From NCBI RefSeq assembly GCF_038871235.1, contig NZ_JAVZIN010000006.1, positions 43,316 through 107,315 on the forward strand: DNA of 64,000 nt, read 5' to 3'. The position numbers and the translations under genes were made by a program. The notes beneath the pieces are model-generated. The model saw nothing but the letters and a program-made list of their open reading frames with translations. It was not told where the DNA came from and ran no database searches. Below, in pieces: positions 5,891 through 30,327 of this stretch. Within the stretch, counting starts at the first letter, position 1; the number at the start of each line of letters is the position of its first letter. Source of the stretch: Candidatus Hadarchaeum sp. Lineage in GTDB: Archaea > Hadarchaeota > Hadarchaeia > Hadarchaeales > Hadarchaeaceae.

Positions 5891-7279
5891 ATGGCGAGCC
5901 TTCTCATCAAAGATGCCAAATATGTGGTGACGGTTGATTCCAAGCGCCGGGTTATTCGCGATGGAGCAGTAGTCATTGATGGAATGAAAATAGTCGATGT
6001 TGGCAAGTCCTCGGAGCTCAAGCGCAAATACCCGCGAGCCGAGACAATTGATGCCAGAAACAAGATCATTATGCCAGGACTGTTTGACTGTCATGCCCAT
6101 TCCTATCAGAACATGATTCGCGGCATGGCCTTTGTGCTGCCGAGGCGACAGCGTGGAGCTTTTCTTCTGGGACCAACGCTGCGTTTGCAGGGCGTTTACA
6201 CTCCGGAGGATGCCAAAGCCTCGATGGCACTGAACTGTCTGGAGTACATCAAGTCCGGGGTCATCGGTTTCTGTGATTGGGGAATAAACCTGAGGTACAA
6301 GATCGACGGTCTCGCCGAGGTAGTTCGTGATTCCGGGATAAGAGGTGTGCTGGGTAAATCAGTCATGGAATTTCCCGATTATGGTTCATGCAAAAACGTG
6401 ATTGATAAGGGATTGATCGAGGATAAGGATGAGTGCATTAGGGACACGATAAGGGCGATAAAAAAGTGGCATGGTAAAGCCGATGGAAGAATTCAGATCT
6501 GGTTTGGACCTAGAAGCGTCGGTGCCCTATCAGTGGAAACATACAAGGAGATTGCCCTTTTGGTCAAAAAGTACAAGGTCGGCATCACCTACCATCTCGC
6601 TGAACTGGGTGAGCTCGACACGGGTTTTATCTGGAACACCTATGGCATGTCGCCGGTGGAATTTATGAAATCGGTTGGCTGGGTCGGTCCAAACGTGAGC
6701 TTCAACCACTGCCTTTACCTAACCGGGATTGACTACAAGATCCTGATGGAAACGGGTACCAACGTCGTTCATTGTCCGGGAACCGGATTTGACACCCGGG
6801 TGCAGGACATGCTCCAGATGGGTATCAATGTGGCCCTCGGCTGCGATGGCGGACATGAGACCAACGACATCTTTTTGGCCATGAAGCTGGAAAAGGTGCT
6901 TCAGAACAGAACCCCGCGTCGGGATCTGACCATCCTATATCCGGAGAAGCTGATTGAGATGGCCACGATCAACGGTGCCAGAGCTCTGATGTGGGATAAG
7001 GAAACGGGATCTATCGAGAAGGGCAAAAAGGCCGACTTGATCTTGGTGGATCTCAACAGGCCGTCGCTGACGCCGATACTGAATCCCGTTAATGACATCC
7101 CCTCCCGCGTCCTCGGTAGCGACGTTGATACCGTCATCGTCAACGGTGAGATTCTGATGGAGAACCGAATCGTGAAGAGCATGGATGAGGCCAAGGTTAT
7201 CGAAGAGGCAAAGAAACGGGCTGAGGAAGTTAGAGAAAGAGCAGGATATGAAATCGAGTGGCACTGGCCCGAGATTTGA
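5891..7279 (+). CDS. Amidohydrolase, MtaD/AtzA/TrzA-like metal-dependent deaminase family
   Basis: HxH (DCHAH), HxxE (YHLAE), 'LGCDG', 'GSIEKGKKADLILVD'. Confidence 0.85.
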   Translation: MASLLIKDAKYVVTVDSKRRVIRDGAVVIDGMKIVDVGKSSELKRKYPRAETIDARNKIIMPGLFDCHAHSYQNMIRGMAFVLPRRQRGAFLLGPTLRLQGVYTPEDAKASMALNCLEYIKSGVIGFCDWGINLRYKIDGLAEVVRDSGIRGVLGKSVMEFPDYGSCKNVIDKGLIEDKDECIRDTIRAIKKWHGKADGRIQIWFGPRSVGALSVETYKEIALLVKKYKVGITYHLAELGELDTGFIWNTYGMSPVEFMKSVGWVGPNVSFNHCLYLTGIDYKILMETGTNVVHCPGTGFDTRVQDMLQMGINVALGCDGGHETNDIFLAMKLEKVLQNRTPRRDLTILYPEKLIEMATINGARALMWDKETGSIEKGKKADLILVDLNRPSLTPILNPVNDIPSRVLGSDVDTVIVNGEILMENRIVKSMDEAKVIEEAKKRAEEVRERAGYEIEWHWPEI

Positions 7280-7376
7280 GTAAGAGCGATTGATATTTTT
7301 GGCAGACCAGCAGATTGGCTAAGTTGGTTGGTCCATAAATTATGGAATGTTTTAAAAGAGTTGGGCTCAAAGGGGT

Positions 7377-8552
7377 ATGGAGCTGAAAAGTATGAGGGAC
7401 GTAGCCATTATTGGAGCCGGCATGACTAAATTCGGCCGATCTCCCGGCGATCTGATGGAGATTATGGCCGAGGCCTCGTTGCGTGCAATAAAACATGCCA
7501 ACGTGGAAAAAGAGGAATTTGACGCCCTGTATGTTTCGAACATGATGGCAGGAGAAACCTCACACCAGACGGCAGTAGCTAGCTCCTTGGCAGACAGGAT
7601 TGCCTTAGTACCAGCCGCAGCCGACAGAGTCGAGAATGGGCCTGCGTCGGGAGGTTCCGCGATTAAAAACGCCTTTCTGGCAGTTGCTTCAGGTTACCAC
7701 GATTTAGTTCTGGTCACCGGGGGAGAAAAGATGACCACGGCCGACACCGATGTCGTAACCGATCTGGTGGCGACAATGACACACCCCACGGCTGAATACA
7801 TCCATGGGGTTACCCTTCCCGCGATGGGAGGAATGCTTACTCGGCTTTACATGGAAAGATACGGTTTAACAGAGAAGCACTTGGCGATGGTTGCCGTGAA
7901 AAATCACGCCAACGCTCTCAAGAATCCTTATGCCCACATCCAGCGGGCCTGCACTATTGAGGGGGCCATGAGCTCAGGAGTTATAGCCGATCCGCTGCGT
8001 CTTTACTATGTTTGCCCAATCAGCGACGGGGCAGCGTCATTGGTGCTATGTCCGCTGGAGAAGGCCAAGAAATATACCGACAAGCCGGTGAGGATTGCGG
8101 GATTTGGTCAGGCAACCGATGTTCAAGCCCTGCAGGAAAGAGACGATCCAACGGTGCTGAAATCCGTTAGGATAGCTGCCCAGAGAGCTTTCAAGATGGC
8201 CGGGGTTACACCTGATGACATCGACGTTGTTGAGTTGCACGATGCCTTTGAGATACTGGAGATAGCCGAGAGCGAGGACATCGGCTTTTTTGAGAAGGGC
8301 AAAGGTCATTTGGCCGTAGAGAAAGGCACCACCGCCCTGGATGGTGATTTGCCCATCAATCCTTCAGGAGGACTAAAGGCGCGGGGGCATGCGGTTGGTG
8401 CTACCGGGGTTGCCCAAGTGGTTGAGCTGGTCTGGCAGCTGCGCGGAGAGGCCGGTGAGCGGCAGGTCAAGGAGCCGAAGAGGGCCCTGTCTTGCAACTT
8501 CGGTGGCTTCGGAAACAACACCGTGATACACATCTTTGAGAGGGGGTGGTGA
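7377..8552 (+). CDS. SCP2-type thiolase-fold protein lacking the canonical nucleophilic Cys
   Basis: 'IIGAGMTKFG', 'KNHANALKNPYAH', 'SDGAA', 'ELHDAF', 'NPSGGLKARGHAVGATG'; VENGPASG where VExACASG is expected. Confidence 0.88.
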   Translation: MELKSMRDVAIIGAGMTKFGRSPGDLMEIMAEASLRAIKHANVEKEEFDALYVSNMMAGETSHQTAVASSLADRIALVPAAADRVENGPASGGSAIKNAFLAVASGYHDLVLVTGGEKMTTADTDVVTDLVATMTHPTAEYIHGVTLPAMGGMLTRLYMERYGLTEKHLAMVAVKNHANALKNPYAHIQRACTIEGAMSSGVIADPLRLYYVCPISDGAASLVLCPLEKAKKYTDKPVRIAGFGQATDVQALQERDDPTVLKSVRIAAQRAFKMAGVTPDDIDVVELHDAFEILEIAESEDIGFFEKGKGHLAVEKGTTALDGDLPINPSGGLKARGHAVGATGVAQVVELVWQLRGEAGERQVKEPKRALSCNFGGFGNNTVIHIFERGW

Positions 8553-8896
8553 TGGTGGAGCAAAAGTTTGTAGCTTACAAGTGCCGGTCGTGTGGCCGAG
8601 TGATGAACCCCAAGCATGATCGATGTCTCACCTGCAAAGGTATGGAGTTTGACGAGATTGAGCTGCCCAAGGTTGGGAAGCTCGTCACTTACACCAAGCT
8701 TTATGCATTGCCGCAGGGAATTGAGGCGCTGCCGCCTTTGACACTCGGCATAGTTGATTTCGATGGTGTCAGGGTGCTCGGACAGCTTACCACCGACGAG
8801 CCAGCTATAGGGATGTCGCTGAGGCCCGTCTGGGGAAAGATCAGGAAACTAAATGACAAAGATATTTATGGGTTTAAGTTTGAACCTGTAAGCTGA
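8546..8896 (+). CDS. DUF35 Zn-ribbon/OB-fold protein (thiolase partner)
   Basis: CxxC...CxxC followed by OB fold 'GKLVTYT...GIVDF..VRVLGQ'; overlaps the thiolase stop. Confidence 0.88.
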   Translation: MVMVEQKFVAYKCRSCGRVMNPKHDRCLTCKGMEFDEIELPKVGKLVTYTKLYALPQGIEALPPLTLGIVDFDGVRVLGQLTTDEPAIGMSLRPVWGKIRKLNDKDIYGFKFEPVS

Positions 8897-8918
8897 GAAT
8901 AAAAAAGGAGGTAAGATA

Positions 8919-9506
8919 ATGGATTACGACTGGAGCAAAGTGATGAAGCCTTATCCGCCGCGGAGAATAATCCTGCCCAACGGGGACGAGATGATAGTGA
9001 AGAGCATGGAGAAGAGCGAGATCGAGGAAGTCTGCGATGCATTGATTCCAAATCTGAAGATACACAAGGAATGGTTTGACCTAGTTACAGCAGAGATGAT
9101 AACTGAGTTCTATCTCTGGCGTGAGAATAGACCCATGTGGGGTTTGCCAGCTGAGAGTCATTTCAACCTTGTTGGTAGAGTCGATGGTGAGGTGGTCGGC
9201 GTCACCAACGGTGCCCTGAGAGACCCCAAGACAGGTTGCAGCCTGCACACAACCACGCTGAAACGAGGTCTGCAGATCGGTGCTTATCTCTGGCCTTGCA
9301 AACTTGAGATGTATTTTGATGTCTTAGGCGTTGATGTGGTGGAGGCAAGTGCGGAGAGCTTGATCGGTGGTCGAAAGCTGTTTCAGGCCTATGGTTTCAC
9401 CCCACACCCAGACAAAAAGAGCCACTTTGGTACAATGTTACAAACAATGACAAAACAACAGTGGGACAGGATAAAGGCCGGTAAACTTGTAGGCGAGAGG
9501 ATCTAG
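8919..9506 (+). CDS. GNAT-fold-like hypothetical protein
   Basis: Strong SD GGAGG; 'LVGRVDGEVVG', 'KRGLQIG' (motif A-like), 'KLFQAYGF' (motif B-like). Confidence 0.55.
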   Translation: MDYDWSKVMKPYPPRRIILPNGDEMIVKSMEKSEIEEVCDALIPNLKIHKEWFDLVTAEMITEFYLWRENRPMWGLPAESHFNLVGRVDGEVVGVTNGALRDPKTGCSLHTTTLKRGLQIGAYLWPCKLEMYFDVLGVDVVEASAESLIGGRKLFQAYGFTPHPDKKSHFGTMLQTMTKQQWDRIKAGKLVGERI

Positions 9507-9528
9507 GTCTCAGCACATCTTGAAACTG

Positions 9529-9564: not shown

Positions 9565-9614
9565 ACCTCAACAGTTTTTATTCAGAAAAATTGTCCAGTT
9601 GTATTGGCCGGGTT

Positions 9615-10214
9615 TTATAGATCATTAGGGGAGTTAATGTTGTTGAACGATTTTAGACTAGGGTCAATTTTTTCCAGATCCTCAGGTGCGATATAGATGA
9701 CGTCGTCTAGAAGATTGATAGCATCAATCATCCGGAATTTATTCTTTTTTCTTGCCTCAATTATTGCGCCGGTCAGTTTCTTTGTTCGGTAGACAGCCTG
9801 AAGGGGCTCTATGTAGCCATTGGGCCATCTAAGAATAGCTCCATCGTGTCCCCTAGCGCGGAAATACAAAAATTCAACTACCTCTGGCTTGATCCAAGGA
9901 CAATCACAGGCGAGGACGGCAACATACTCTGAGCTAACAACGGGGAGCGATGAAAACAAGCCGATCATTGGACCCTCTTCAGAACTTTTATCTACCACAA
10001 CTTTGGCTTCGGGAAATGTCCTCGCGAGATCTTCCTGATATAGTTTGCAGGAGATGATTATTTCACCTGAAAGTTTCTTTATTTTCTCGAAGACGTGTTT
10101 GATCAAGGGTTGTCCATTAACTTCGTAGAAAGCTTTAGGGCAGCCCATTCTTTTGCTGTCGCCACCAGCCAGGATTAAGACGGCAAATTTTTCCCTGAAA
10201 CCATAATTGTTCAT
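9615..10214 (-). CDS. mobA: Molybdenum cofactor guanylyltransferase
   Basis: 'LAGGDSKRMG..KA', 'GPMIG', 'LACDCP', 'EPLQAVY', 'NINSP.DL'. Confidence 0.88.
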   Translation of the reverse strand: MNNYGFREKFAVLILAGGDSKRMGCPKAFYEVNGQPLIKHVFEKIKKLSGEIIISCKLYQEDLARTFPEAKVVVDKSSEEGPMIGLFSSLPVVSSEYVAVLACDCPWIKPEVVEFLYFRARGHDGAILRWPNGYIEPLQAVYRTKKLTGAIIEARKKNKFRMIDAINLLDDVIYIAPEDLEKIDPSLKSFNNINSPNDL

Positions 10215-10375
10215 GCTAACCGATTGGATATTTGTAATGTCTGTTTATGAGTTTAACCGTAAGTTTTCTGATTTATGGCCGCTATGGGTCAAATGATACA
10301 GATCATGGAATTTCATCAAAACTCTTTTAAAGAATCCATCTTAGGATAATAGGAACAAAATCAGAGGGCGAAAAT

Positions 10376-11644
10376 TTGGAGACCATTGAGAAAAAAATCG
10401 ATGAGGCTAACAGACTGTGTGTGGAAAGAATTATGGAATCACATCCTGTTCTGGTAGACATTGATCACGCGATAAATGTGATCCCAGGGATGGAAGAACG
10501 AATGGTTCTGCACAGCGGCCCCCCGCTTTCCAGAGGCTGGGATGAAATGGTTGGCCCCATGAGGGGTGCCGTTATTGGAGCCATGATTTATGAGGGTTGG
10601 GCAAAATCGGAGGCTGAAGCAATCGAACTCATCAGAAAAGGTGAAATAAAGTTTGATTCTACCTCCAACCATAGTGCTGCGGCCCCGATGGCGGGAATAG
10701 TGACACCTTCCATGCCCGCTTTCGTGGTCAAGAACAAAACCTATGGCAACTTTGCCTATTGCAATGTCAACGAGGGACTTGGTAAGGCCCTGAGGTTCGG
10801 CGCCAACGACGAGCAGGTGATAGCACGGCTTCACTGGATAGAGAAGACACTGATGCCGGCCCTGAAAGTGGTGTTGAGGGAGGGCGAAATTGACCTCAAG
10901 GAGCTGATCGAAGCCTCACTGCACCGAGGTGATGAATGTCACAACAGAAACAAGACGGTTTCCCTGTTGTTTTTGAGCGAAATTTTGCCCCGACTCCTTC
11001 GTTCCGATTTGGATAGGAATCAGGTTGCTGAGGTGGTCGATTTCATCCGGGGCAACCCTCACTTTTTCCTAAACCTCTCCATCCCGTCGAGCAAGTCTTC
11101 TCTGGACGCGGCCAACAACATTGAGTACAGCACTGTGGTTACCGGATTCTGCACTAACGGCGTCAACTTCGGCATGAGGGTCAGCGGCATCGGCGACAGG
11201 TGGATTACGGCACCATCCATTCACGCCAAGGGAAAGTACTTCAAGGGCTTTAAGGAGGGCGATGACGCTCCGGTGCTGGGTGACTCATATTACTCCGAAC
11301 CTGCGGGCATTGGCGGCTTTGCCATGGCGGCAGCTCCGGCGATAGTCAGTTTTATCGGCGGGGAGCCAGACTTGGGAATTAAGACCACACTGGAGATGTA
11401 CCAGATAACGGTGACCGAACACAAGTACTTTAAGATCGCCAATTTAGGATATCGGGGTACTCCGCTAGGCATCGACATCAGAAAGGTGCTGAGAACTGGA
11501 ATCTTGCCTGTGATCAACACTGGCATGGCGCATAAGGATCCGGGAATCGGCCAGGTGGGAGCAGGAATAATCAGGGTCCCGATGGAGCTCTTCAGAAAGG
11601 CGCAGATTGAATTCGAAAGAAGATATGGAATAAAAATTGTTTGA
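10376..11644 (+). CDS. DUF1116 protein (YlbE/YahG, AllG-like oxamate carbamoyltransferase subunit family)
   Basis: 'LHSGPP', 'GAMIYEGWA', 'PMAGI', 'NEGLGKALRFGA', 'GDECHNRN', 'INTGMAHKDPGIGQVGAG'. Confidence 0.85.
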   Translation: METIEKKIDEANRLCVERIMESHPVLVDIDHAINVIPGMEERMVLHSGPPLSRGWDEMVGPMRGAVIGAMIYEGWAKSEAEAIELIRKGEIKFDSTSNHSAAAPMAGIVTPSMPAFVVKNKTYGNFAYCNVNEGLGKALRFGANDEQVIARLHWIEKTLMPALKVVLREGEIDLKELIEASLHRGDECHNRNKTVSLLFLSEILPRLLRSDLDRNQVAEVVDFIRGNPHFFLNLSIPSSKSSLDAANNIEYSTVVTGFCTNGVNFGMRVSGIGDRWITAPSIHAKGKYFKGFKEGDDAPVLGDSYYSEPAGIGGFAMAAAPAIVSFIGGEPDLGIKTTLEMYQITVTEHKYFKIANLGYRGTPLGIDIRKVLRTGILPVINTGMAHKDPGIGQVGAGIIRVPMELFRKAQIEFERRYGIKIV

Positions 11645-11721
11645 AACTTCATTTGGAAAATCTAGGAATTTTGAAAATGTATATAAGCACCTCAGGTAAG
11701 TTGTATTCAAAAAGTGATTCT

Positions 11722-12486
11722 ATGAAAAAAATGAAAGTGATTGACCTTACTCAACCTTGGGGAATGAACACGCCGCCGTGGCCGGGAGGAAAAGCGCCAA
11801 CGATAAGATATGTGAACATGATCTCCACTGATGGCTACAGTCAGCAAGAGATCACCTTTACCACCCACATTGGAACCCACCTCGATGGCCCGCTGCACTT
11901 TGACCCAAAGGGCAGGGACCTAGCCAGTTTACCTATGGACAAGCTGGTCGGTGAGGGAGTCGTGGTGGATGTCAGCGAGGTTGGCCCCTTCGGGATTTAC
12001 ACGCCGAAGCACGTGACGAGCAAGGTTGACGTTAAGAAGGGGGACATACTGATTATCCACACCGGTTTCCACAAATACTACGCCAACGCTGAGGAGCCAG
12101 ATGAGGTCGCCTATTTCTACAAGCATCCCGGGCCGCACAGGGAGTTCAGGGACTGGGTGGCGGAGATGAAGTTCAAGTGGATCGGAGTTGACTGCGGTTC
12201 AGCCGATCATCCAATGAACACTGGCCTTCAGAAGCTCAACCCGCTCGTCGCCAAGGAAGCGGAGAAAAAGCTGGGGAAGCCATTGAGCGAGATCTTCCCT
12301 CCAGAGATGGATCACATGATGCACAACACCCTATTCAAGCAACCCCATGAAATAATTCACGTGGAGAACATTGGCGGGGACATCGATAAGGTGCTGAACA
12401 AAAGGATGATAATTGGGTGCTTCCCGCTCAAGACAATCGGCGGTGAATCCACACCCTGCCGGGTTGTGGCATTCCTTTTTGAGTAA
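11722..12486 (+). CDS. Cyclase family protein (kynurenine formamidase/isatin hydrolase-like)
   Basis: 'HIGTHLDGPLHF' metal motif, 'IIHTG', 'GVDCGSADHP', 'HVEN'; start moved to ATG 11722, downstream of a TATATAA box. Confidence 0.88.
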   Translation: MKKMKVIDLTQPWGMNTPPWPGGKAPTIRYVNMISTDGYSQQEITFTTHIGTHLDGPLHFDPKGRDLASLPMDKLVGEGVVVDVSEVGPFGIYTPKHVTSKVDVKKGDILIIHTGFHKYYANAEEPDEVAYFYKHPGPHREFRDWVAEMKFKWIGVDCGSADHPMNTGLQKLNPLVAKEAEKKLGKPLSEIFPPEMDHMMHNTLFKQPHEIIHVENIGGDIDKVLNKRMIIGCFPLKTIGGESTPCRVVAFLFE

Positions 12487-12530: not shown

Positions 12531-12911
12531 TCAACGCAGAGCGGCGATGCCATCGATCTCGATCAGCAGATCCTCCATAATGAGGTTCTTGACCGCGATC
12601 AGGGTGCTGGCTGGGGGATCCTTCTTAAAGTACTCCGACCTTATCTGCCTGAATTTAGCCAAGTTTTTGATGTCGGTTAGGTAGATCCTTATCTGAACGA
12701 GGTCGTCGAGGGTTCCACCCTCAGCGGCTAGGATGGTCCGCAGATTCTCGAAAACCTGTCTCACCTGCTTTTCAAAGTCACCCTTGCCGACAATTTCCCC
12801 CTTGGCGTTTTCAGCGATTTGTCCTGAAATAAAGAGAAGGTTGCCCACCCTGATTGCTGGAGAATATCCCGTAGGTTTGGGCAGACCTTCCGGAACGACT
12901 ATTTTTTTCAC
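12531..12911 (-). CDS. RidA/YjgF/UK114 family enamine/imine deaminase
   Basis: 'YSPAIRVGNLLFISGQ', 'QVFENL', 'PPAST', 'IEID'; Ser where the catalytic Arg of 'PAR' is expected. Confidence 0.85.
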   Translation of the reverse strand: MKKIVVPEGLPKPTGYSPAIRVGNLLFISGQIAENAKGEIVGKGDFEKQVRQVFENLRTILAAEGGTLDDLVQIRIYLTDIKNLAKFRQIRSEYFKKDPPASTLIAVKNLIMEDLLIEIDGIAALR

Positions 12912-12947
12912 TTGCTCACCTCCTAAGTGGAACTGTTTTTGTCGGTC

Positions 12948-14426: not shown

Positions 14427-14618
14427 GTGTCTCAGTATGCTTAAGAGCCGACCGTTAAAAAGATTTTTGGTCAAAATTCAATTTTACCTTTCCGATAATC
14501 GGCGTTGAGATTATTGATATATACGAAAAACGAACTTTTCAAAAATAGCTTACTAAATACATTAAAGTTGGGCTGGGTTCGGACTGTCTGGCTTATATTG
14601 AACTAACCCGATAATTTC

Positions 14619-15338
14619 ATGATGCTTAAAGATAGAGTCAGGAGGTTAGCCCTAAAACTGGGGGCTGATTTGGTTGGATTTGGGCCCGCTGAGGCCATTG
14701 AGGAGGCGCCCGCCGGACATAGGGCGCAGGATTTTCTCCCTAGCGCCAAAACCGTCTTTTCAACGGCGGCACGCATAAATTATTCCGCTGTTGACGGCCT
14801 CCCCCTGACAAGACGGGAATATATCAATGCCAATGATAGCTCCCGTGCTCTACTCAACGGTGTCATCTGCGGAATCTCGAGATATCTTGAGGAAGAAGGC
14901 TATTCTGCGATACCCTTCCTCCAAGGGACAGATCGTAAGGTGTTGATGGGAGACCTTTCCCTGAAACACGCGGCAGTAGTGGCCGGTCTGGGTGAGTTCG
15001 GATTGAACAATCTACTTCTGACACCTCGTTTTGGACCTAGAGTGCTATTGGGTGCCGTGGTCACAGATGCTTTGATTGTTCCAGATCCACCACTAAGAGA
15101 GCAGCTCTGCGATCTATGTGGGGCTTGCTTGAAAGCCTGCCCTGTTGGTGCGATAAAGGAATTAAAGGATTTTGATAGAAAAAAAGGTGGAGCCATGGAT
15201 AAGTACAAATGTTCTCATTATATAAACGAAATTTTGGAGCCAGAGTACGGCCACCACAGCTGCGGCCTTTGTATCAAAGCTTGCCACGTTGGAAAAGTGG
15301 AAAAGGTGCAAAAAAGTATACAGGCGAAGTTAAAATGA
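14619..15338 (+). CDS. QueG/reductive-dehalogenase-like double [4Fe-4S] protein
   Basis: 'LKHAAVVAGLGEFGLNNLLLTPRFGPR', CxxCxxCxxxCP and 'CGLCIKAC'. Confidence 0.8.
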   Translation: MMLKDRVRRLALKLGADLVGFGPAEAIEEAPAGHRAQDFLPSAKTVFSTAARINYSAVDGLPLTRREYINANDSSRALLNGVICGISRYLEEEGYSAIPFLQGTDRKVLMGDLSLKHAAVVAGLGEFGLNNLLLTPRFGPRVLLGAVVTDALIVPDPPLREQLCDLCGACLKACPVGAIKELKDFDRKKGGAMDKYKCSHYINEILEPEYGHHSCGLCIKACHVGKVEKVQKSIQAKLK

Positions 15339-16746: not shown

Positions 16747-16882
16747 AGTATCAACCTCAGGTTTCAACAAACATTACTGTTCACAAACTTTTATCGTTGA
16801 CTCTGTCATAAATCAAACCACTCCCGTGTTGCACAGTTGTTTCATAAAAGTTTAATAGCTTCGCCACCCATCCTCAACAGAG

Positions 16883-20333: not shown

Positions 20334-20335
20334 AG

Positions 20336-21419: not shown

Positions 21420-21490
21420 ATGGAATCTACCAGCTGCCAAAAATCATCATCGGCCCTTGATAAAAATCTTGTCCTGAAAGTGCTGGGAAT

Positions 21491-22849: not shown

Positions 22850-23856
22850 CGTTGTAGCCTCTTTGATGATGCTACCCCAGCAAGCAGATATAATATGGTC
22901 CAAGTGGTGATCCAGTAAAGGGGCCAAGCAGGCAACTGGTAGGGCTGCCAAGCCGGGGTCGGGATCCACTCTACGTTGAAAGCGGTCACCATATTTTTGC
23001 CGACTTCATGGACGATTTTGAGCAGATCGGTTGTAGTGATTCCCAGTGGCTCATCAAGTCCTGGGGCGGCCCCGAGATCCAAGACGTCCAGATCCAAGTT
23101 GAGGAAGAGGTGATCAACTCCTGCCCCTGCTTTTTTAATAGCTTCTCCAGTGATAGCTATGATTCCATTTTTTTCTATTTCAGTGTAAGTATATACAGTA
23201 GCTCCCTTCTTACGGTACCATTCCATCTGTTCCCTGAAGTTCCTCGGCCCCCTCATACCGATCTGGATAAAATTTTTCATGTTCACTCCATCTAGCTCTG
23301 ACACACGGGCTACCCAGCAGGCGAGAGACCATTTACTATTTTGGTGAGATTCCATGTTGTCAGCGTGGGCGTCCAGATGGATGATGCCTAAATTACCACC
23401 AAGCCGGCATATGGATTTTGCAACAAGGTACGGGTGTGCCCCGACTGTCAGCGGGATGCATCCGGCTTCCAAAATTTCGAAAATTCTCTTCTCCGCAAGT
23501 TGAAAGTATTCTTCGATGTCCACCTGGTCTAAGGGATAAAATCCGGTAACGTCGCCGCAATCGACAAGGTTAACCTGGCCGAGGACATCCATGTCAAGTT
23601 CGGGCAGATACCCTCCATATTTTATAGAGGCCTTTCTCAAGCGCATGGTGTCCATTATATTTACGCCAACTTCCCTACCGACCAGCATCTCGGCGCCTTG
23701 AGATGGCAAGCCTAAAAATGCCGCATCTGCACCCTTCAGCTCTCCCTTCTTCCTTGCTGCTGGAACCCCAAGAAAAGTTGGAACATCGCCGTAAATGGTG
23801 GGGATGAGCATTTTTTGAAATTTTTCCATGGATTTCCTATACTTGATTTTACTCAC
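22846..23856 (-). CDS. Ureohydrolase (agmatinase/arginase superfamily), atypical
   Basis: 'PTFLGVP', 'DCGD', HLDAHAD, 'QIGMRG', DLDVLD..APG. Confidence 0.82.
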   Translation of the reverse strand: MSKIKYRKSMEKFQKMLIPTIYGDVPTFLGVPAARKKGELKGADAAFLGLPSQGAEMLVGREVGVNIMDTMRLRKASIKYGGYLPELDMDVLGQVNLVDCGDVTGFYPLDQVDIEEYFQLAEKRIFEILEAGCIPLTVGAHPYLVAKSICRLGGNLGIIHLDAHADNMESHQNSKWSLACWVARVSELDGVNMKNFIQIGMRGPRNFREQMEWYRKKGATVYTYTEIEKNGIIAITGEAIKKAGAGVDHLFLNLDLDVLDLGAAPGLDEPLGITTTDLLKIVHEVGKNMVTAFNVEWIPTPAWQPYQLPAWPLYWITTWTILYLLAGVASSKRLQR

Positions 23857-23960: not shown

Positions 23961-24263
23961 ATGCAACAGATAGAGGTGTCAGTAGTTTACCTGTCTTTTT
24001 TCCAGGAGCTCACAGGGACAAGAGAGGAAAGAGTGAAGGTTCAGAAGGGGATGACGCTAAGAGAGTTTCTGGAACTACTGTGCGTCAGACACGGTGAAGT
24101 CTTTAGAAAAACCATTTTTGATCCGAAGACCGGTCGTGTTTTCAGTCATAACCACATAACTCTGAACGGGCAGCTGGCCCATCTCTTGGATAAAAACCTC
24201 GGAGTTAACCTGAGAGAGGGAGACCGCGTGGTTATAGCCCACGCTGTTTCTGGCGGCGAGTAG
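23961..24263 (+). CDS. MoaD/ThiS (SAMP-like) sulfur carrier ending in GG-E
   Basis: Beta-grasp pattern, 'LREGDRVVIAHAVSGGE'. Confidence 0.85.
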   Translation: MQQIEVSVVYLSFFQELTGTREERVKVQKGMTLREFLELLCVRHGEVFRKTIFDPKTGRVFSHNHITLNGQLAHLLDKNLGVNLREGDRVVIAHAVSGGE

Positions 24264-24270: not shown

Positions 24271-26196
24271 TCAAAATGGAATTTTGCCCAGCTTTTCCAG
24301 CTCTTCAGCCACATAGTCCAAGGCGAGTTCTTCCAGCTTTTTCCGGGGGATAAAACCAGTTTTCGGATCCCATCCTCTCAGGTTATAGTATTCATCTAAC
24401 ATTTTATCCAGTTCTACCACGTGCCCTTTGCTTACACCCTCCGGGGCAGGCGTTTTCGTAAATCTTTCAGGCAGAGTGTCGTCCTCCTTGCTCAAACCTT
24501 CTCGGATATTGAAGGCCCTTTGGAGGTTGACTATCCTCTCGCCAATTCTTCTCAAATCCCCGCCGTTTACCTTCATCCCAGTAGCCAGCCTCAGGATTTT
24601 AGCCATATCTTCAAAATAAATCTGCCCCGTGTACAGCGGCAGGCAGGTTCCGGAGCTTTTGCATAGCGATAAACTGTCGCAGAGGGCGCAGAGTTCCTCG
24701 CCGTCTTTTACTTCGTAGGCCTTGTATTTAGGGCTCAGCGGCCGGGCCATCTCGGGAAGATATTTTTCGCCGAACCTTGCCTTGATTGGCTCCTCCCTGC
24801 CGAGTTCGTCCAGCAACGGAAAGGCCTTGAGATGATCGCCCCCACGATTGGCAACCGCGTGAGCCAGACCCATAGATTTCTGAGCCCTGCCATCCTGTGC
24901 GGCTATTTCCAGCTTTTTCACGGTCATCAGATATTTTTCCGAGCCACGGCCAATTTTTTGTGCCGCCCGGTAACTGCCCTCGGCTAGAAGGGCGCCAAAT
25001 CCTTCCCTATGAGCAATTTTAGGAATCAACTTAATCACTGCCTCGTAGTTACCCCAATTCAGCTCTATGCCATCGGTGTCCTCTTTGGTGAGAATGCCAT
25101 TTTCGTAGCATTCCATGGCCCAAGATATAGTTCCTCCAGTGGAGATGGTATCTAAGCCCAGCTCATCGCAAAGCTCGTTAGCATAGATAATCGCATCCAA
25201 GTTTTTGATCCCCAACCTAGCGCCCAATGCTGATAGGGTTTCATACTCTGGCTGTTTACCATATATTCCAGCGTAAGGCGGGTTTTTGACACGAACCGGT
25301 TTTTCACAGGTGGCCCAGCAACCGAACCCGCCCCGATCCTTTATCCGGTACTCCTTTCTGATCCTTTCCCCGCCGATTTCCTTGGCGAAGGGAAATACAC
25401 CGGTTTGAAAGTTCCTTACAGGCCACCGAGCGATCTCGTTCATCAGCTCCACAAGAATGGGAGTGCCGAATTTTATTCTGTCGAGAATGTAAAAGTCGTT
25501 CTTATAAACTTCGATAATACTTTTCATGAATTCATAAAACTCTACTGGATTTTCCGTTTTCACATCTTTTGTGCCTCTAACCGCAACGGCTTTTAAGTTC
25601 TTAGATCCCATCACAGTGCCGAGCCCGCAACGAGCCGCGGCCCTTCTCTGGCTGATAATTGAGGCATACTTGACCAGATTTTCGCCAGCGGGTCCGCAGC
25701 AAGCAACTTGAATTCTGTAGTCACCAAGGTCCTTTCTTATTATCTCCTCAGCTTCGCCGGTGGTCTTGTTCCAGATATCTTCAGCGTCCATGATCTTGAC
25801 GTTGTCATCGTCAATCCAGAGATAAACAGGGCTACTGGCTTTCCCTTGAAAGACGATGGCGTCGTAACCAGCAAACTTTAGTTCCGGACCCCAGTGGCCG
25901 CAGCAGCTGGAGTCGCCGTAAATCCCGGTAAGCGGGGACTTGGCGCCGACCTCAAATCTGCAGCTGACTGGCCAGCCCGTGCCGCAAAGCGGTCCCACGG
26001 CAAAGATGAGCCGATTTTCAGGGGAGAGTGGATCGATAGCTGGGCCGACTTCATCCCACAAAATCTTGGTGACGAATCCCGCACCACCGAGAAAGCTTTC
26101 GGCAAGTCCAGCATCCAAAGGCTGCTTGGTGACCACTTTGTTCGTCAGGTCCACCCGGATTATTTTTCCCCCATAGGCTTTGTACTTAAAGCTCAT
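24271..26196 (-). CDS. aor: Tungsten aldehyde:ferredoxin oxidoreductase family protein
   Basis: 'KSPLTG', 'GPELKFAGYD', 'GPAGENLV', 'VMGSKNLKA', 'EYET', 'DELGLD', 'NRGGDHL', 'YYNLRGWD'. Confidence 0.92.
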   Translation of the reverse strand: MSFKYKAYGGKIIRVDLTNKVVTKQPLDAGLAESFLGGAGFVTKILWDEVGPAIDPLSPENRLIFAVGPLCGTGWPVSCRFEVGAKSPLTGIYGDSSCCGHWGPELKFAGYDAIVFQGKASSPVYLWIDDDNVKIMDAEDIWNKTTGEAEEIIRKDLGDYRIQVACCGPAGENLVKYASIISQRRAAARCGLGTVMGSKNLKAVAVRGTKDVKTENPVEFYEFMKSIIEVYKNDFYILDRIKFGTPILVELMNEIARWPVRNFQTGVFPFAKEIGGERIRKEYRIKDRGGFGCWATCEKPVRVKNPPYAGIYGKQPEYETLSALGARLGIKNLDAIIYANELCDELGLDTISTGGTISWAMECYENGILTKEDTDGIELNWGNYEAVIKLIPKIAHREGFGALLAEGSYRAAQKIGRGSEKYLMTVKKLEIAAQDGRAQKSMGLAHAVANRGGDHLKAFPLLDELGREEPIKARFGEKYLPEMARPLSPKYKAYEVKDGEELCALCDSLSLCKSSGTCLPLYTGQIYFEDMAKILRLATGMKVNGGDLRRIGERIVNLQRAFNIREGLSKEDDTLPERFTKTPAPEGVSKGHVVELDKMLDEYYNLRGWDPKTGFIPRKKLEELALDYVAEELEKLGKIPF

Positions 26197-26662
26197 TTTT
26201 TTCCTCCGTTATCTCCTTAAGTTTCAACGCACGTTTTATTCCTGTTTCATAGGCAATGTCGTTAGGATCAACAAATCTCAACTTCCCCGGGGGGCAGTGT
26301 TTCACGCAGTTTCCGCACTGATCGCACTTTATCGCTGTTCCCTTGTCCGGGTGAAGCCAGATGGCACCGAAGGGACATTCTTGAACACAGACGCCGCAGC
26401 CGATACACTTTTGGGAGTCGACCACCCACACCCGGCCTCTTCTTTCTATGGCGTCCACCGGGCAGCTTTGGGCGCAGGGCGCGTTCTCACATTGCCGGCA
26501 GACGATCGGGTTGTCGTAGGCGGCGCCGATTCTGACGACGCGTATTCTGGATTTCTGAGGATTCATCAGACCTTCCTTGATGTAGCTGCAGGCTATCTCG
26601 CAGTTTCTGCATCCGGTGCATTCGAGCGGGTCTATATACAATATTCTCCTTGACATTTTCAA
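26186..26662 (-). CDS. Polyferredoxin-type 4Fe-4S subunit associated with AOR
   Basis: Four Cys clusters (CTGCRNCEIAC, CRQCENAPC, CIGCGVC, CDQCG.CVKHCP); overlaps the aor start. Confidence 0.88.
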   Translation of the reverse strand: MKMSRRILYIDPLECTGCRNCEIACSYIKEGLMNPQKSRIRVVRIGAAYDNPIVCRQCENAPCAQSCPVDAIERRGRVWVVDSQKCIGCGVCVQECPFGAIWLHPDKGTAIKCDQCGNCVKHCPPGKLRFVDPNDIAYETGIKRALKLKEITEEKNEL

Positions 26663-27742
26663 TCAACTCAAATTTATCGCGTTGACTGGGCAAAGCGTGG
26701 CGCAGAGACCGCAGCCGAAGCAGGCAGTTTCATCCACCCTCGCCACGCCACCTTGCACTTTTATCGCCGCATAGGCACAAGCCCGTTGGCAGAGACCGCA
26801 ACCGTTGCACAGATCGTGATTAATGCTTGGAATTATTCGGGAAAATAACGGTTCTTCATTGAGAAGTTTCAATGATAAGCCTCGAATTTCCTCCAAACTA
26901 TTATAACCAAGCGCTTTGATTACCTCACTAATTTCTTCTACTATTTTTGAGAAAACCCCCAATCCTCTGAGGATTGCCGCGGTGTGAAGGTGAATGCAGG
27001 TGGCTCCCGCCATCAGGAATTCGATTGCGTCCTTACCGTTGCTGATGCCCCCACCCCCGACAACAGGTATTCTTACACTTTTGGCCATTTCAGCGACGCA
27101 TCTCAGCGCCAGCGGTTTTATGGCTGGTCCGGAGAGATAGCCGTACCCGAATTTTGAGCCCAGCAATGGTCTGCCCGTCCTCGCGTCGATGGCCAGCACC
27201 GGCCCCAGCGTGTTGATTCCGGAGATATAGTCTGCCCCAGCTCTTTCAATCCCCTTAGCGTATCGCGGGATGTCTGATATATTTGGGCCAATTTTGACTC
27301 CGAGGGGGATGACAACCGCTTCCTTGATTTTGCGGATGTTTTCCTGTAGCTGTTCAAGCGAGGGGTTGCTGATGGGCAATTCCAGCATGTCGGCGCCGGC
27401 CTCTTCCAGAAGCTTGGCCATTCTCACTTCCTCATCAATGTCACCAAGAATGCTGACTATTACCGGCTTCTTTCCCTCTTTGGCGATCTTCATCTGTCTG
27501 CAAATCTGTTCGGCGCTGAGGGCGGACCAATCGTGATTGATCATGGTACCTCCTTGGAGAGCAATCATGCAAGGTCGGGGGGTATCCTCCTCTCTTGGAT
27601 ACACAGTTTTAGCCACGATTGCTCCGATGCCATAATGTTCCGCGGCCCTCTTGATCGCAGGACCATCCTTGCTCAAAGGTCCCGGTGCCAGAACGGTTGG
27701 GAATTCCAGCCTTAGGTCCGCGAGTTTTACCGTAAGATCCAG
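26663..27742 (-). CDS. PreA/dihydroorotate dehydrogenase-like FMN enzyme with C-terminal 2x[4Fe-4S]
   Basis: Frame extends upstream of the ORF-track start to LDLTVKLADLRLEFPTVLAPGP; 'VAKT', 'GINT', 'LSGPAIKP', 'GGGGIS', two ferredoxin motifs; probable CTG start. Confidence 0.82.
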   Translation of the reverse strand: MDLTVKLADLRLEFPTVLAPGPLSKDGPAIKRAAEHYGIGAIVAKTVYPREEDTPRPCMIALQGGTMINHDWSALSAEQICRQMKIAKEGKKPVIVSILGDIDEEVRMAKLLEEAGADMLELPISNPSLEQLQENIRKIKEAVVIPLGVKIGPNISDIPRYAKGIERAGADYISGINTLGPVLAIDARTGRPLLGSKFGYGYLSGPAIKPLALRCVAEMAKSVRIPVVGGGGISNGKDAIEFLMAGATCIHLHTAAILRGLGVFSKIVEEISEVIKALGYNSLEEIRGLSLKLLNEEPLFSRIIPSINHDLCNGCGLCQRACAYAAIKVQGGVARVDETACFGCGLCATLCPVNAINLS

Positions 27743-27755
27743 CGTTTTTTCACCC

Positions 27756-29147
27756 TCAGCGCTCGGGCAGTGTCCAGACGGGATTTATCGGCGTTTCGAT
27801 GGCGCGCCTCTGATACTTCTCTGCTTGGCGCTGTGCTCTTTCGAGCAGTTTTTCCTCATCGACGGTTAGAATCTTTTTGTTGTCCACCACAATTTTACCA
27901 TCCACGATGACGGTATCAACATCAGAACCTCGGCAACTAAAAGCTAAAACTTCAAGCTTGTTCAGAGCCGGAGTCAGTTTTGCCTTACCAGAAAAATCAA
28001 CGATAATTATGTCGGCTTTCTTGTTAGGTTCCAAGGATCCGATTTCCTTCTCCCGGCCCAGAACCTTGGCGCCGCCCATAGTGGCCAGATGGAGGGCTTG
28101 TGTAGCTGGCAAGAGCCCGTCGTCGAGGTAGTAAAGACGGAGCATGGCCATCGAGAAGGTCATCAGCTCAAACATGTCATAGATGTTGACGCCGTCTATA
28201 CCGAGGCCGACTTTGCCGTTCCTTTTGATCAGCTCCACAGCCGGGGCCAGCCCATTGGCGTAAAAGGCATTACTTTTGATGTTGAAGGACAGGCCAACGT
28301 TGTTTCGCCGCCAGATCTCCAGTTCATTCTTAGAAATGTAGATTCCGTGGGCGGCATCAACGTCCGAACCCAGAAAGCCGATTGAGTCGAGAAACTCAAC
28401 TGAGCCACCAACTTGGTATTTCTTTTTTATCATCTCAACCTCATAGGTGCTCTGGGCGATGTGAATCTGGATACCACAGTTGTGCTTATCAGCTATCTCC
28501 CGCGCTTTTTTCAGCGTTTCCGGAGTGCAGGAGAAGCAGGTGTGTACCCCCATCATTCCTTGGACGCGGGCGTCTTTCTTGTAATTTCTTTTTTTGATGA
28601 AATTTTCATTTTCCTTGAGTCCCATTTTCCCTTTGGCGAGACTTACCCGGTCGGTGGTTTCAAAGGAAAGGAAGGCTCGAATTCCGGCTTCGTCGCAGGC
28701 CCTGCCCGCCGAGTCAAGCGCCCCAGGAAGAAGATTCTGTCCTTCTTGAAGATCCGCGGTGCAGGTAATTCCATTTTTCAGCATCTCCACCGAGGCGAGG
28801 AGGATTCCGGTGTAGACATCCTCCTTGGTGCATGTATCCTCAATTTTAGGCCACCACCAGCGCGTGAGAAGGCTGCCGAAATCAGAAGCTATCTCTGGTG
28901 GTAAAGGGATATTCATGTAACGGGTTAAAGAGTTATACATGTGGTTGTGAGGTGTTACGAAACCGGGCATTATTGCTTTACCCTTGGCGTCAATAATTTC
29001 TTCAGCATGATATTTTTTCTTGATCTCCGAAGTCGTACCCACGGCCAAGATTCGGTTTCCCTCAACGACCAAAGCGCCGTCTTCTATAACCCTGTTCATC
29101 TGATCCATGGTGACCAAAAATCCATGCTCTATGATGAAATCTGCCAT
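27756..29147 (-). CDS. SsnA-like amidohydrolase
   Basis: 'PGFVTPHNHMY..L.R', 'DF..LL..WWW', 'GVHTCFS', IHIAQ, 'LGIDG'; start moved to ATG 29147. Confidence 0.82.
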   Translation of the reverse strand: MADFIIEHGFLVTMDQMNRVIEDGALVVEGNRILAVGTTSEIKKKYHAEEIIDAKGKAIMPGFVTPHNHMYNSLTRYMNIPLPPEIASDFGSLLTRWWWPKIEDTCTKEDVYTGILLASVEMLKNGITCTADLQEGQNLLPGALDSAGRACDEAGIRAFLSFETTDRVSLAKGKMGLKENENFIKKRNYKKDARVQGMMGVHTCFSCTPETLKKAREIADKHNCGIQIHIAQSTYEVEMIKKKYQVGGSVEFLDSIGFLGSDVDAAHGIYISKNELEIWRRNNVGLSFNIKSNAFYANGLAPAVELIKRNGKVGLGIDGVNIYDMFELMTFSMAMLRLYYLDDGLLPATQALHLATMGGAKVLGREKEIGSLEPNKKADIIIVDFSGKAKLTPALNKLEVLAFSCRGSDVDTVIVDGKIVVDNKKILTVDEEKLLERAQRQAEKYQRRAIETPINPVWTLPER

Positions 29148-29254
29148 AGTTCCTGTTGAATATAAGCAAAATTCAATAAAAACTTTTTGAAAATCAGCAT
29201 CTATGAATAATTGGTCAGAACCTGTGTTGTATCGAAAGATAGTGTTCAAACAAA

Positions 29255-29296
29255 AAAGTAAAAAAATCCTCTAGAGGTTAGAATTTTCTCTAGAGG
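29255..29296 (-). terminator. Hairpin plus T-tract terminator after the BMP gene
   Basis: Minus strand CCTCTAGAG-N11-CTCTAGAGG followed by T runs. Confidence 0.55.
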
Positions 29297-30327
29297 GTGA
29301 TGCTCTGGACTAGTTCTTTTACATTTATTTTGCCGGATATGATGTCCTGTTTTGCCTGTTCCATTTCATCCAGAACGGTTTGTGGTATTTTGTCCTTGAG
29401 GGCATAGAACGGAGTCAACGTGACACCACCTGTCTTTAGATCAGCCGGGTAAATCGACTTGAATTGACCTGCTTTGATATCGAGCATTATTGTCTTGTAG
29501 TGTGAGTATGAGTCCCATATTGCGCTGGTCACGATAATGTTGGGGTTGATTGAGTGGGTGTCTCCTTCACAGCCAAAGACATAAGCCTTACCAGTTTCTT
29601 GCGCGGCCATGATGGCTCCCAGCACCGGACCGTCGGTCATGGGGGCGAGAAAGTCCGCACCTGATTCGATCTGCGCCATTGCTGCTTCCTTACCCAGAGT
29701 TGCGTCCATGAAGCTACCGGTGACTGCATAGAGGACGGTAGCGTGCGGGTTCACGCTTAGGACCCCTGCCTTAAACCCTTTAGACCATTCGACGATTCCC
29801 GGAACTTCAAGTGGACAAAGGGTGCCGACAATATTGGTCTTGGTCATTCTGCCTGCTAGAATTCCAAGCAGGTAGTAGGCCTCTTCCAAGTATGACCAGA
29901 CAACCGAAGCATTTGACGGGAAATCCGGAGCCAGCAAAGCCGTGGTGACAAAGTACGAATTGGGGTATTTTTGGGCAGCTTCTCTAGTGGTGTCAACAAA
30001 CTGAGCGCCATGTTGGATTATCAGATCATAGCCTTCCGCAGCATATCCGCTTGCAATTCTCACGGCGTCTGGTACCGCAACCTGTTCCGTGTAGGAGAAT
30101 TTGTCAGCTACTCCCTCGGCCACCAGCCTCGAAACGGCCTGGTAAGCAGGACCGTTCCAGGTAAGATCGGTTATCACGTCCGGCAGCAGTAGGGCTATTT
30201 TCCACTGCTTGGTCGGTTGCGAAGTTGTGGTAGTAGTGCCTCCGGGCTGGGTTGCAACGTAAGCGGCTGCCACTGCGATAATTGCTATCACTAAAATAAC
30301 TCCGGCAATCATTCCAGTTTTTGGCAT
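29290..30327 (-). CDS. BMP/PnrA-family ABC substrate-binding protein (nucleoside/nucleobase type)
   Basis: N-terminal anchor and Thr-rich linker, 'D.TWN', 'GYDLII.HG', 'YLLGILAGRMTKT', 'GFKAG', 'GAD'. Confidence 0.88.
   Translation of the reverse strand: MPKTGMIAGVILVIAIIAVAAAYVATQPGGTTTTTSQPTKQWKIALLLPDVITDLTWNGPAYQAVSRLVAEGVADKFSYTEQVAVPDAVRIASGYAAEGYDLIIQHGAQFVDTTREAAQKYPNSYFVTTALLAPDFPSNASVVWSYLEEAYYLLGILAGRMTKTNIVGTLCPLEVPGIVEWSKGFKAGVLSVNPHATVLYAVTGSFMDATLGKEAAMAQIESGADFLAPMTDGPVLGAIMAAQETGKAYVFGCEGDTHSINPNIIVTSAIWDSYSHYKTIMLDIKAGQFKSIYPADLKTGGVTLTPFYALKDKIPQTVLDEMEQAKQDIISGKINVKELVQSITL

Follow-up and report, generated by a model that had tools for sequence, protein, structure and literature searches.

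Here we describe a gene island in Candidatus Hadarchaeum sp., an archaeon of the hot subsurface known only from uncultured material. The island lies between positions 5891 and 30327 of a 64,000-nucleotide stretch of contig NZ_JAVZIN010000006.1 (positions 43,316 to 107,315; hereafter the window, corresponding to C6:43316-107315 when the contigs of the source genome are numbered C1 onward). The source genome (G000) comprises 1.205 Mb in 16 contigs and is 94.75% complete. The island holds 23 open reading frames (ORFs), and the 23 genes and gene families listed in the initial annotation are borne out by the ORF list and by Pfam and NCBIfam profile searches, in which NCBIfam scores were compared with equivalog cut-offs. 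The right part of the island, which contains its conserved core, is made up of an operon encoding a BMP-family binding protein, an SsnA-like hydrolase, a PreA-like reductase, a ferredoxin and an aldehyde ferredoxin oxidoreductase (AOR) on the minus strand, a MoaD gene on the plus strand, a ureohydrolase–HyuA–DUF2284 operon on the minus strand and an operon on the plus strand for an enamidase homologue (A4), a bis-MGD (bis-molybdopterin guanine dinucleotide) enzyme and an Fe-S subunit (Table 1). None of the island hydrolases scores above an equivalog cut-off, the nearest being the hydantoinase-type protein at 382.8 against 393.25.

The SsnA-like hydrolase falls short of both SsnA models (NF005540, 308.8 against 444; TIGR03314, 300.1 against 455.5). 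Its true start is likely at position 29147, which gives 463 residues, the length also found in database gene calls. Four MtaD/SsnA-type amidohydrolases had been proposed in the window (A1, 5891-7279; A2, 12948-14474; A3, 15403-16770; and the SsnA-like protein, 27756-29249) together with an enamidase-like protein, and all five assignments stand, the last with 357.5 bits to the enamidase structure 2vun. The metal ligands HxH, His, His and Asp are conserved in all five. At the catalytic position, HxxE is intact in A1 and A3 and is replaced by HIAQ in the SsnA-like protein, HAGV in A2 and HLGP in the enamidase-type A4. The window protein shares its Gln with 7/7 orthologues from the loci described below. 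In a collection of 5.8 billion proteins used for residue surveys, the best 120 matches to the SsnA-like protein comprise 27 with Gln, 92 with Glu and one with Asp, and the Gln carriers are all the matches of at least 43% identity plus one partial protein. The Gln clade is monophyletic in a 65-row tree from a quick IQ-TREE search (Shimodaira–Hasegawa-like approximate likelihood ratio test (SH-aLRT), 100) and its sister group, inside a branch with SH-aLRT 99, contains E. coli SsnA and a second SsnA from contig C5 of the same genome; the exact place of E. coli SsnA is unsure because its branch is long. A1, A2 and A3 fall outside both groups. One member of the Gln clade, database protein P0147, has Tyr and Asn in place of His ligands and is probably an inactive paralogue.

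We compared the neighbourhoods of this hydrolase by searching 41 Hadarchaeales genomes (G-numbers) with the window protein, which yielded loci from 30. The best match is a close orthologue of 62–100% identity in eight of them (G000–G004, G006, G007 and G011) and a paralogue of at most 43% identity in the other 22. Only G002 and G007 preserve the entire gene order, and G003, G004 and G011 retain a subset consisting of the SsnA-like hydrolase, PreA-like reductase, ferredoxin, AOR, MoaD, ureohydrolase and HyuA-like genes; in G003, xdhABC, a second xdhA and a further amidohydrolase gene border this core. The same seven genes, reordered and 43–70% identical, are present in Ca. Hecatella orcuttiae (Bathyarchaeota), where they are joined by genes for an HxxE amidohydrolase and a distantly related BMP protein. 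A scan of metagenome contigs, queried with an alignment of 14 Gln-clade proteins, retained 80 loci (L-numbers), of which 7 are of the Gln type, from five lineages, and 73 of the Glu type. Other island families occur at 7/7 Gln-type loci and at 2/73 Glu-type loci. At L065 (75% identity), the order is xdhA, then BMP, SsnA(Q)–PreA–ferredoxin–AOR, MoaD and ureohydrolase–HyuA–DUF2284–A4–bis-MGD, whereas L069/L070 (47% identity) carries a single co-directional string of a homologue of the island's 195-residue protein, a thiolase (60%), DUF35, ureohydrolase, an HxxE amidohydrolase, SsnA(Q) and HyuA. Because of this string, the thiolase, DUF35 and 195-residue GNAT-like trio is tied to the hydrolases independently of Hadarchaeum. 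The core recurs reshuffled and is read as laterally mobile, with the trio linked to it on its own account. The proposal that the 24 kb form one island holds for the core, which is co-conserved across two archaeal phyla and metagenome contigs, but the full 24 kb is not one unit.

The reductase gene lies directly downstream of the SsnA-like gene. Its product combines an FMN domain of the dihydroorotate dehydrogenase (DHODH) fold with a C-terminal pair of [4Fe-4S] clusters and has no FAD/NAD domain; we call it UacX-type on account of this domain makeup and its position, the published UacX having been compared by description only. Unlike the PreA of PreAT, it misses the PreA equivalog score (NF006183, 171 against 335) and has no adjacent PreT gene; its identity to E. 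coli PreA is 28%. The initial annotation held that the window has no PreT, which is true of the neighbourhood of this gene, but a PreT homologue, the only one in the window, is encoded 20 kb away (48038-49480). This protein is of the NfnB/GltD type and has an NfnA-like partner subunit. The resulting NfnAB/SudAB-type pair (48038-50328, minus strand), with a GltD-like subunit (TIGR01316, 622 bits) and an FAD/NAD-binding subunit, likely joins the ferredoxin and NAD(P)H pools. The conserved N-terminus of the UacX-type protein extends in frame upstream of the naive ORF into a segment with no ATG, GTG or TTG. An ACG behind GGTGA (27731-27745) is found there in the window and in G002, G006 and G007, and G004 has ATG at this place. 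The alignment of these starts suggests that translation probably begins at the ACG at 27745, giving a protein of 360 residues that is longer than the naive ORF.

The ferredoxin and the AOR complete this operon. The closest solved chains to the ferredoxin are partner subunits of AORs, 9mqx_E (114.5 bits) and 8c0z_C (102.6 bits). The AOR itself is nearest to Pyrococcus furiosus AOR (1aor, 494 bits) and retains in the alignment the catalytic Glu and His positions, which we take to be Glu313 and His448. Its earlier label, tungsten AOR, is thus correct as to the family; the metal is not legible in a sequence. The AOR clade of the window has Gly or Ser in place of the first Cys of the CxxCxxxC cluster motif and has gained a CC pair in the N-terminal domain, a combination found in the window AOR, in 5/5 orthologues from the loci and in 11/120 database matches, all of which share at least 69% identity. 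A large clade at 50–54% identity (database proteins P0016-P0121) has Asp at the position of the first Cys, and those members that carry a source name include Asgard, Korarchaeota and Thermoproteota. The MoaD gene adjoins the AOR gene in G002, G003, G004, G007, Hecatella and L065. In its catalytic subunit, AorA-like ferredoxin and MoaD-like neighbour, the set resembles AorABC (8c0z) and P. furiosus AOR. It differs from AorABC in that the operon has no AorC-like FAD/NAD subunit and has the gene for the putative ring reductase in the neighbouring position, and from both systems in the missing first cluster Cys and the conserved CC pair.

For the arginase-fold ureohydrolase, the solved structures that come nearest are remote relatives, namely 7esr/9fek (82 bits; entered in the database as agmatinase 2), a guanidinobutyrase and a metformin hydrolase. 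It scores below the equivalog cut-off (TIGR01230, 73.9 against 174.3) and keeps the His, DxHxD and DxD ligands of the binuclear metal site. It is found wherever HyuA adjoins a Q-type SsnA gene (the window, G002, G003, G004, G007, G011, Hecatella, L065 and L069/70) and is absent from the C5 module described below and from the E. coli cluster. The HyuA-like protein, which probably starts near 22845, scores 302 bits to the L-hydantoinase 1gkr, keeps HxH, Lys, His, His and Asp, so that its binuclear site is complete, and matches E. coli HyuA better than any other protein of the genome does (36% identity). The DUF2284 gene is retained behind HyuA in G002, G004, G007, L064 and L065. Hence the statement that several island enzymes carry altered catalytic residues applies to the SsnA-like protein (HxxQ), A2 (HAGV), the UacX-type loop discussed below and the AOR cluster motif, but not to the ureohydrolase or the hydantoinase, both of which have their full set of metal ligands.

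The BMP gene is the first of the core operon and adjoins the SsnA-like gene in G001, G002, G004, G006 and L065. Members of the BMP family are nucleoside binders. Beyond the island, 8 kb from the BMP gene, lie two genes for BMP-type ABC permeases (38066..40183, plus strand; NF047929, 218.9 bits, under the cut-off of 400; PF02653, 134.7 bits), which are possible partners of the island BMP protein. No ATPase gene was recognized beside these two permease genes.

The reductive uric-acid pathway of anaerobic bacteria described in 2025, which the initial annotation does not name, offers the closest comparison. According to two reports on it (10.1101/2025.05.19.654654, 10.1101/2025.04.24.650524), XdhD converts urate to isoxanthine, YgfK or a ferredoxin-type UacX reduces the ring in a step coupled to ring opening by SsnA, HyuA acts next, the ureido groups are cleaved by YgeW/YqeA or UacY and by YgeY, and YgeX follows. 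UacX is proposed to be ferredoxin dependent, and a variant cluster of the Clostridioides difficile type comprises XdhD, UacX, SsnA, HyuA, UacY, YgeY and YgeX. The combination of SsnA, a PF01180 reductase and HyuA is the signature of this pathway, and the initial description of the island as an unfamiliar enzyme set must be given up in this respect. The island shares with this 2,8-dioxopurine route a PF01180 FMN reductase that has no FAD/NAD(P)H partner, an SsnA-related hydrolase and an adjoining hydantoinase; the logic of reducing and then hydrolysing is common to both, as are xanthine dehydrogenase (XDH)-family genes, which are present in the genome and stand beside the core in G003 and L065. 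Unlike that pathway, the island has a hydrolase of the HxxQ sister clade that stays under the SsnA cut-offs, has no XdhD-type XDH and no YgeW, UacY or YgeY in the window, and belongs to a genome with no YgeX. It adds the ureohydrolase, the AOR with its four-cluster ferredoxin, MoaD and the thiolase/DUF35 trio, and its genome also holds a more canonical module on C5. A literature search returned no description of an AOR in purine clusters or of purine catabolism in Hadarchaeota, and the words tungsten, aldehyde, arginase and agmatinase have no occurrences in Barba et al. 2013 (PMC4016543).

We mapped the whole genome and searched it by tblastn with the proteins of the E. coli ygeW-uacT, all and preTA clusters. 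It contains seven AOR genes, three of which adjoin PreA-like genes, seven PreA-like genes, five XDH-family loci and amidohydrolases of the cyclic (five) and MtaD (at least nine) types, spread over C1, C3, C4, C5, C6, C8, C11, C12 and C16. The C5 module (C5:33334-39379; L043 8335-14374) encodes a HyuA-like protein on the minus strand, an HxxE-type SsnA and a 362-residue UacX-like protein on the plus strand, DUF5698/DUF2179, XdhC and MocA. Within the genome, E. coli SsnA finds its closest match in the SsnA of this module (30%; window protein, 27%). Given the C5 module, the window module counts as a paralogue rather than the sole route. An ADP-forming acyl-CoA synthetase pair precedes the C5 module. 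An in-frame TGA in the C5 SsnA gene of several genomes was considered as a selenocysteine codon and rejected; it is a stop codon with a second stop after it. Further AOR modules consist of M20–PreA–AOR–ferredoxin (C6:13.5-19 kb), AOR–ferredoxin–MoaD–M20–RidA–amidohydrolase (C16) and cyclic amidohydrolase–AOR–PreA (C3:107-113 kb).

The XDH-family large subunits are encoded on C1, C3, C5, C11 and C12, and four carry a GGGFG stretch. None of the five matches the CoxL signature patterns, and we presume from this that they look more like hydroxylases than like CO dehydrogenases. The absence of XDH noted in the initial annotation holds for the window only and says little, because five XDH-family loci, XdhC and MocA are present elsewhere and XDH genes stand beside the core in G003 and L065. 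The reported lack of YgeW, YgeX and YgeY holds for the window, and that of YgeX extends to the genome (no tblastn match at 1e-5; best TIGR01747 score 22.9 bits against 274); a nitrilase-type beta-ureidopropionase is likewise absent from the whole genome. OTCase-like and carbamate-kinase genes are found on C3, and M20 genes at C16 and C6:13.5 kb. At C8:72015-75219, genes for XDH-type FAD and [2Fe-2S] subunits are followed immediately by an AOR-family gene at the contig end, an unusual combination, with no XDH large subunit in view there.

Taken together, these observations suggest that the island is a Hadarchaeum-specific gathering of operons for the anaerobic breakdown of purine-type N-heterocycles, assembled around a mobile and paralogous variant of the uric-acid pathway, a reading that we consider about evenly balanced between right and wrong. 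The reduce-then-hydrolyse route proposed at the outset for N-heterocycles in an archaeon gains support from the co-conservation of the core and from the further modules of the same kind in the genome. The breadth of substrates then suggested, from pyrimidines through pyridines to purines, is not resolvable from sequence, and only the analogy to purine breakdown has comparative support. From the gene families, residue states, synteny and co-occurrence described above, we infer the following scheme, in which all substrates, the sequence of reactions and the path of the electrons are predictions. The BMP protein, with the permeases 8 kb away, would import a base or nucleoside; the PreT-less UacX-type flavo-iron-sulfur enzyme would reduce the ring; the HxxQ hydrolase would open the six-membered ring and the hydantoinase the five-membered ring; and the arginase-fold ureohydrolase may remove an amidino, guanidino or formimino unit at the stage at which bacteria use YgeW/UacY and YgeY on ureido groups. 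The extra thiolase/DUF35/GNAT-like trio could handle the carbon skeleton as a thioester.

For the AOR, we favour a role as low-potential redox partner of the UacX-type enzyme through the four-cluster ferredoxin. Enamidase opens a reduced N-containing ring and yields an aldehyde, which fits a logic of reduction, hydrolysis and then oxidation, and RidA fits enamine or imine intermediates. The AOR would oxidize an aldehyde, probably one set free when the ring opens, much as enamidase does, and its electrons would pass to the UacX-type reductase, which would take the place of the FAD/NAD subunit of AorABC-type enzymes. We propose aldehyde oxidation feeding the reductase because the aldehyde-type active site is kept, the wire is of the AorA type and both an enamidase homologue and RidA are encoded nearby.

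Several observations weigh against this interpretation. The UacX-type protein has no Cys in the loop that is catalytic in DHODH and dihydropyrimidine dehydrogenase (DPD), and the lost Cys and gained CC pair of the AOR could mean chemistry beyond plain aldehyde oxidation. No reductase or AOR gene was found in the flanks of L069/L070, so the redox pair is not obligatory for the hydrolases. The AORs beside the Q-type genes of G011 and L066 share only 31–39% identity with that of the window, and their Cys motif is the ordinary one; the link is therefore to AORs in general rather than to one clade. For AllG–cyclase, MobA, A1, A2–RidA and the QueG-like gene, no link to the core was seen beyond close congeners, and kin genomes are non-independent samples.

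If the AOR were itself a ring (de)hydroxylase replacing the molybdenum enzyme XdhD, for instance by taking an oxo group off the purine or putting one on ahead of the reduction, the island would be the known pathway run with tungsten. The AOR does occupy the position that XdhD has in bacteria, near UacX and SsnA, and its clade has an unusual cluster motif that lacks Cys1 and has acquired a CC pair. However, the genome has five XDH-family loci as well as XdhC and MocA, XDH genes stand beside the core in G003 and L065, the aldehyde-type Glu and His positions are kept in a protein with 494 bits to P. furiosus AOR, and different AOR clades fill the position in G011 and L066. Because the canonical C5 module and these XDH genes coexist with the island, the AOR is probably not a simple XDH substitute, and a paralogous route for a related substrate fits better than an exchange of tungsten for molybdenum; we regard the replacement of XdhD as distinctly unlikely. 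A substrate other than a purine, which we also think unlikely, could be an amidine- or guanidine-bearing N-heterocycle or a pyridine, such as a pterin, a 2-aminopyrimidine, a creatinine-like cyclic guanidine or a nicotinate-type compound handled by the enamidase homologue and the bis-MGD enzyme. The solved kin of the ureohydrolase (agmatinase 2, guanidinobutyrase and metformin hydrolase), the HxxQ change that separates the hydrolase from SsnA, the linkage of the enamidase homologue and bis-MGD enzyme to the HyuA operon in L065 and the lack of YgeX all point this way. So do the solved relatives of the hydrolase, among them one chain entered in the database as 8-oxoguanine deaminase and others that we take to be pterin-type deaminases. 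Yet the binding protein belongs to the BMP family of nucleoside binders, XDH genes are adjacent in two relatives and the closest characterized system by gene content is still a purine route.

An ordinary reductive pathway for uracil or thymine would cast the PreA-like protein as a ferredoxin-type DPD, the HyuA-like protein as dihydropyrimidinase and the AOR as the enzyme that oxidizes malonate semialdehyde. The PreA-like fold is present, the HyuA-like protein lies just under the dihydropyrimidinase cut-off and the reductive pyrimidine route generates an aldehyde, but neither the SsnA-related hydrolase nor the ureohydrolase has a role in such a route, no nitrilase-type beta-ureidopropionase is encoded in the genome and the gene that best matches E. 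coli PreA lies on C12 (41%) rather than in the window (28%), which makes this assignment very unlikely. Chance adjacency comes more easily in a genome this dense in amidohydrolase, AOR and PreA-like genes (the counts above fall within 1.2 Mb), and the outer genes are kept in close congeners only; an island that encodes no pathway at all nevertheless seems to us extremely improbable. The core recurs reordered in another phylum and on metagenome contigs, and the contrast between Q-type and E-type loci in carrying other island families (7/7 against 2/73) already disfavours chance for the core.

A bolder extension of the purine-type interpretation, which we consider doubtful, would make the AOR, ferredoxin and PreT-less reductase together an 'aldehyde:heterocycle oxidoreductase' with an internal redox loop, in which the aldehyde released by opening one ring pays for the reduction of the next. 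The route would then be an undescribed one for fused pyrimidines that bear an amidine or guanidine group, with the HxxQ hydrolase and the arginase-fold enzyme as its hallmarks. Given seven AOR genes, seven PreA-like genes and five XDH-family loci in 1.2 Mb, fermentation of nucleobases from necromass would be one of the main lifestyles of Hadarchaeum, in place of CO oxidation, which has reportedly been inferred from its XDH/Cox-like genes. It was not until 2025 that the fate of purines under anaerobic conditions was worked out for gut bacteria, and hot deep-subsurface archaea appear to run several paralogous versions of the reductive purine route. The island stands out among them as a discrete and rare enzyme set, with the HxxQ hydrolase, the arginase-fold enzyme and a PreT-less reductase beside an AOR and ferredoxin. 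Should the proposed wiring hold, the AOR family would gain a new electron-acceptor module and the amidohydrolase and arginase superfamilies a new reaction each, and the metabolism of Hadarchaeota, in which a large share of a 1.2-Mb genome is spent on such modules, would have to be reread.

Table 1 Features of the island, core genes first (window positions; bit scores are followed by the equivalog cut-off where one applies)
Feature	Positions	Strand	Evidence
BMP/PnrA-family substrate-binding protein	29290..30327	-	PF02608 137 bits; N-terminal membrane anchor, Thr-rich linker
SsnA-related amidohydrolase, rare HxxQ clade	27756..29249	-	NF005540, TIGR03314 below cut-offs
UacX-type, PreT-less putative ring reductase	26663..27745	-	PF01180 116.6 bits, Fer4
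AorA-type ferredoxin, four [4Fe-4S]	26186..26662	-	16 invariant Cys, four CxxCxxCxxxC groups
AOR-family pterin oxidoreductase	24271..26196	-	PF02730 268.5 bits, PF01314 445.2 bits
MoaD/ThiS-fold protein, C-terminal GG	23961..24263	+	PF02597; TIGR01687 44.9 vs 49.5
Arginase-fold ureohydrolase	22846..23856	-	PF00491 121 bits
Hydantoinase/dihydropyrimidinase type (HyuA-like)	21491..22969	-	TIGR02033 382.8 vs 393.25
DUF2284 metal-binding protein	20859..21440	-	PF10050 147.9 bits; last gene of ureohydrolase–HyuA operon
Cytoplasmic bis-MGD oxidoreductase (714 aa) and DmsB-like Fe-S subunit (166 aa)	18189..20836	+	PF04879/PF00384/PF01568
Enamidase homologue A4	16883..18133	+	357.5 bits to 2vun, residues 9-388 vs 5-383
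MtaD-type amidohydrolase A3	15403..16770	-	HxxE intact
Small Fe-S protein, weak QueG/reductive-dehalogenase likeness	14619..15338	+	TIGR02486 57.8 vs 160.35; TIGR00276 49.2 vs 200
Amidohydrolase A2, then RidA	12531..14474	-	HAGV replaces HxxE
MobA (-), AllG/DUF1116 (+), PF04199 cyclase (+)	9615..12486	mixed	Genus-level neighbours
Second thiolase, DUF35, 195-aa GNAT-like protein	7377..9506	+	Pfam/NCBIfam families
MtaD-type amidohydrolase A1	5891..7279	+	HxxE intact

Among the genes around the core, A4 aligns over 380 residues (357 bits) with the enamidase of nicotinate fermentation in Eubacterium barkeri. Unlike in that pathway, neither a nicotinate dehydrogenase nor a 6-hydroxynicotinate reductase was identified beside it, and it is paired with the cytoplasmic bis-MGD enzyme. 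The A4 and bis-MGD block relocates jointly in G004 (A4–bis-MGD–FeS) and A4 is co-directional after HyuA–DUF2284 in L065, its linkage to the core being seen only within Hadarchaeum lineages. The nearest solved structure to the bis-MGD enzyme is acetylene hydratase (2e7z, 365 bits), with the Cys ligand position kept. The residue aligned to Asp13 of 2e7z, presumably the catalytic Asp, is His in the bis-MGD enzyme, and this replacement, together with the Fe-S partner subunit, leads us to reject acetylene hydratase as its identity.

The left part of the island consists of A1–thiolase–DUF35–195-residue protein (plus), MobA (minus), AllG–cyclase (plus), A2–RidA (minus), the QueG-like gene (plus) and A3 (minus). 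The 195-residue protein is GNAT-like by the language-model features of the ESM Atlas alone. The thiolase and DUF35 genes were considered as the housekeeping mevalonate pair, which is ruled out: unlike the archaeal thiolase/HMG-CoA synthase/DUF35 complex, they have no HMG-CoA synthase gene beside them, and the only such gene in the genome (585 bits) is at C8:13686-14711, where it forms a trio with another thiolase/DUF35 pair. A1 adjoins the thiolase gene in G001, G002 and G007 and the A2–RidA pair in G004; that pair is retained in G002, G004 and G007. HxxE amidohydrolases similar to A3 (33–42% identity) stand beside SsnA(Q) in Hecatella, G011, L066 and L069. The QueG-like label, given to a gene retained in G002 and G007 only, rests on weak scores (57.8 bits for reductive dehalogenase, 49.2 bits for QueG) that are far under the cut-offs.

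Among the compared loci, MobA, AllG and the cyclase adjoin the island in G002 only. The AllG domain scores 272.8 bits and is 41% identical to E. coli YlbE. Oxamate carbamoyltransferase consists, according to one report, of AllF, AllG and AllH (PMC11326118). There is no FdrA or YlbF gene beside AllG, genome-wide tblastn giving weak matches on other contigs, and with no AllF/AllH neighbours the use of AllG as an oxamate marker is unsupported.

Elsewhere in the window, a run of ORFs of 125–395 residues at 32376-36325 (32376-32816, 32829-34016 and five in 34007-36325) matches no Pfam family at 1e-3 or 1e-4, nor do two ORFs at 36757-37868. A DUF438–hemerythrin–PAS protein is encoded at 2618-3841 (minus strand), where the local G+C content is 0.417 against about 0.50 elsewhere. 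HypD and the large subunit of a sulfhydrogenase-type [NiFe] hydrogenase are encoded at 55601-56782 and 59548-60879, respectively.

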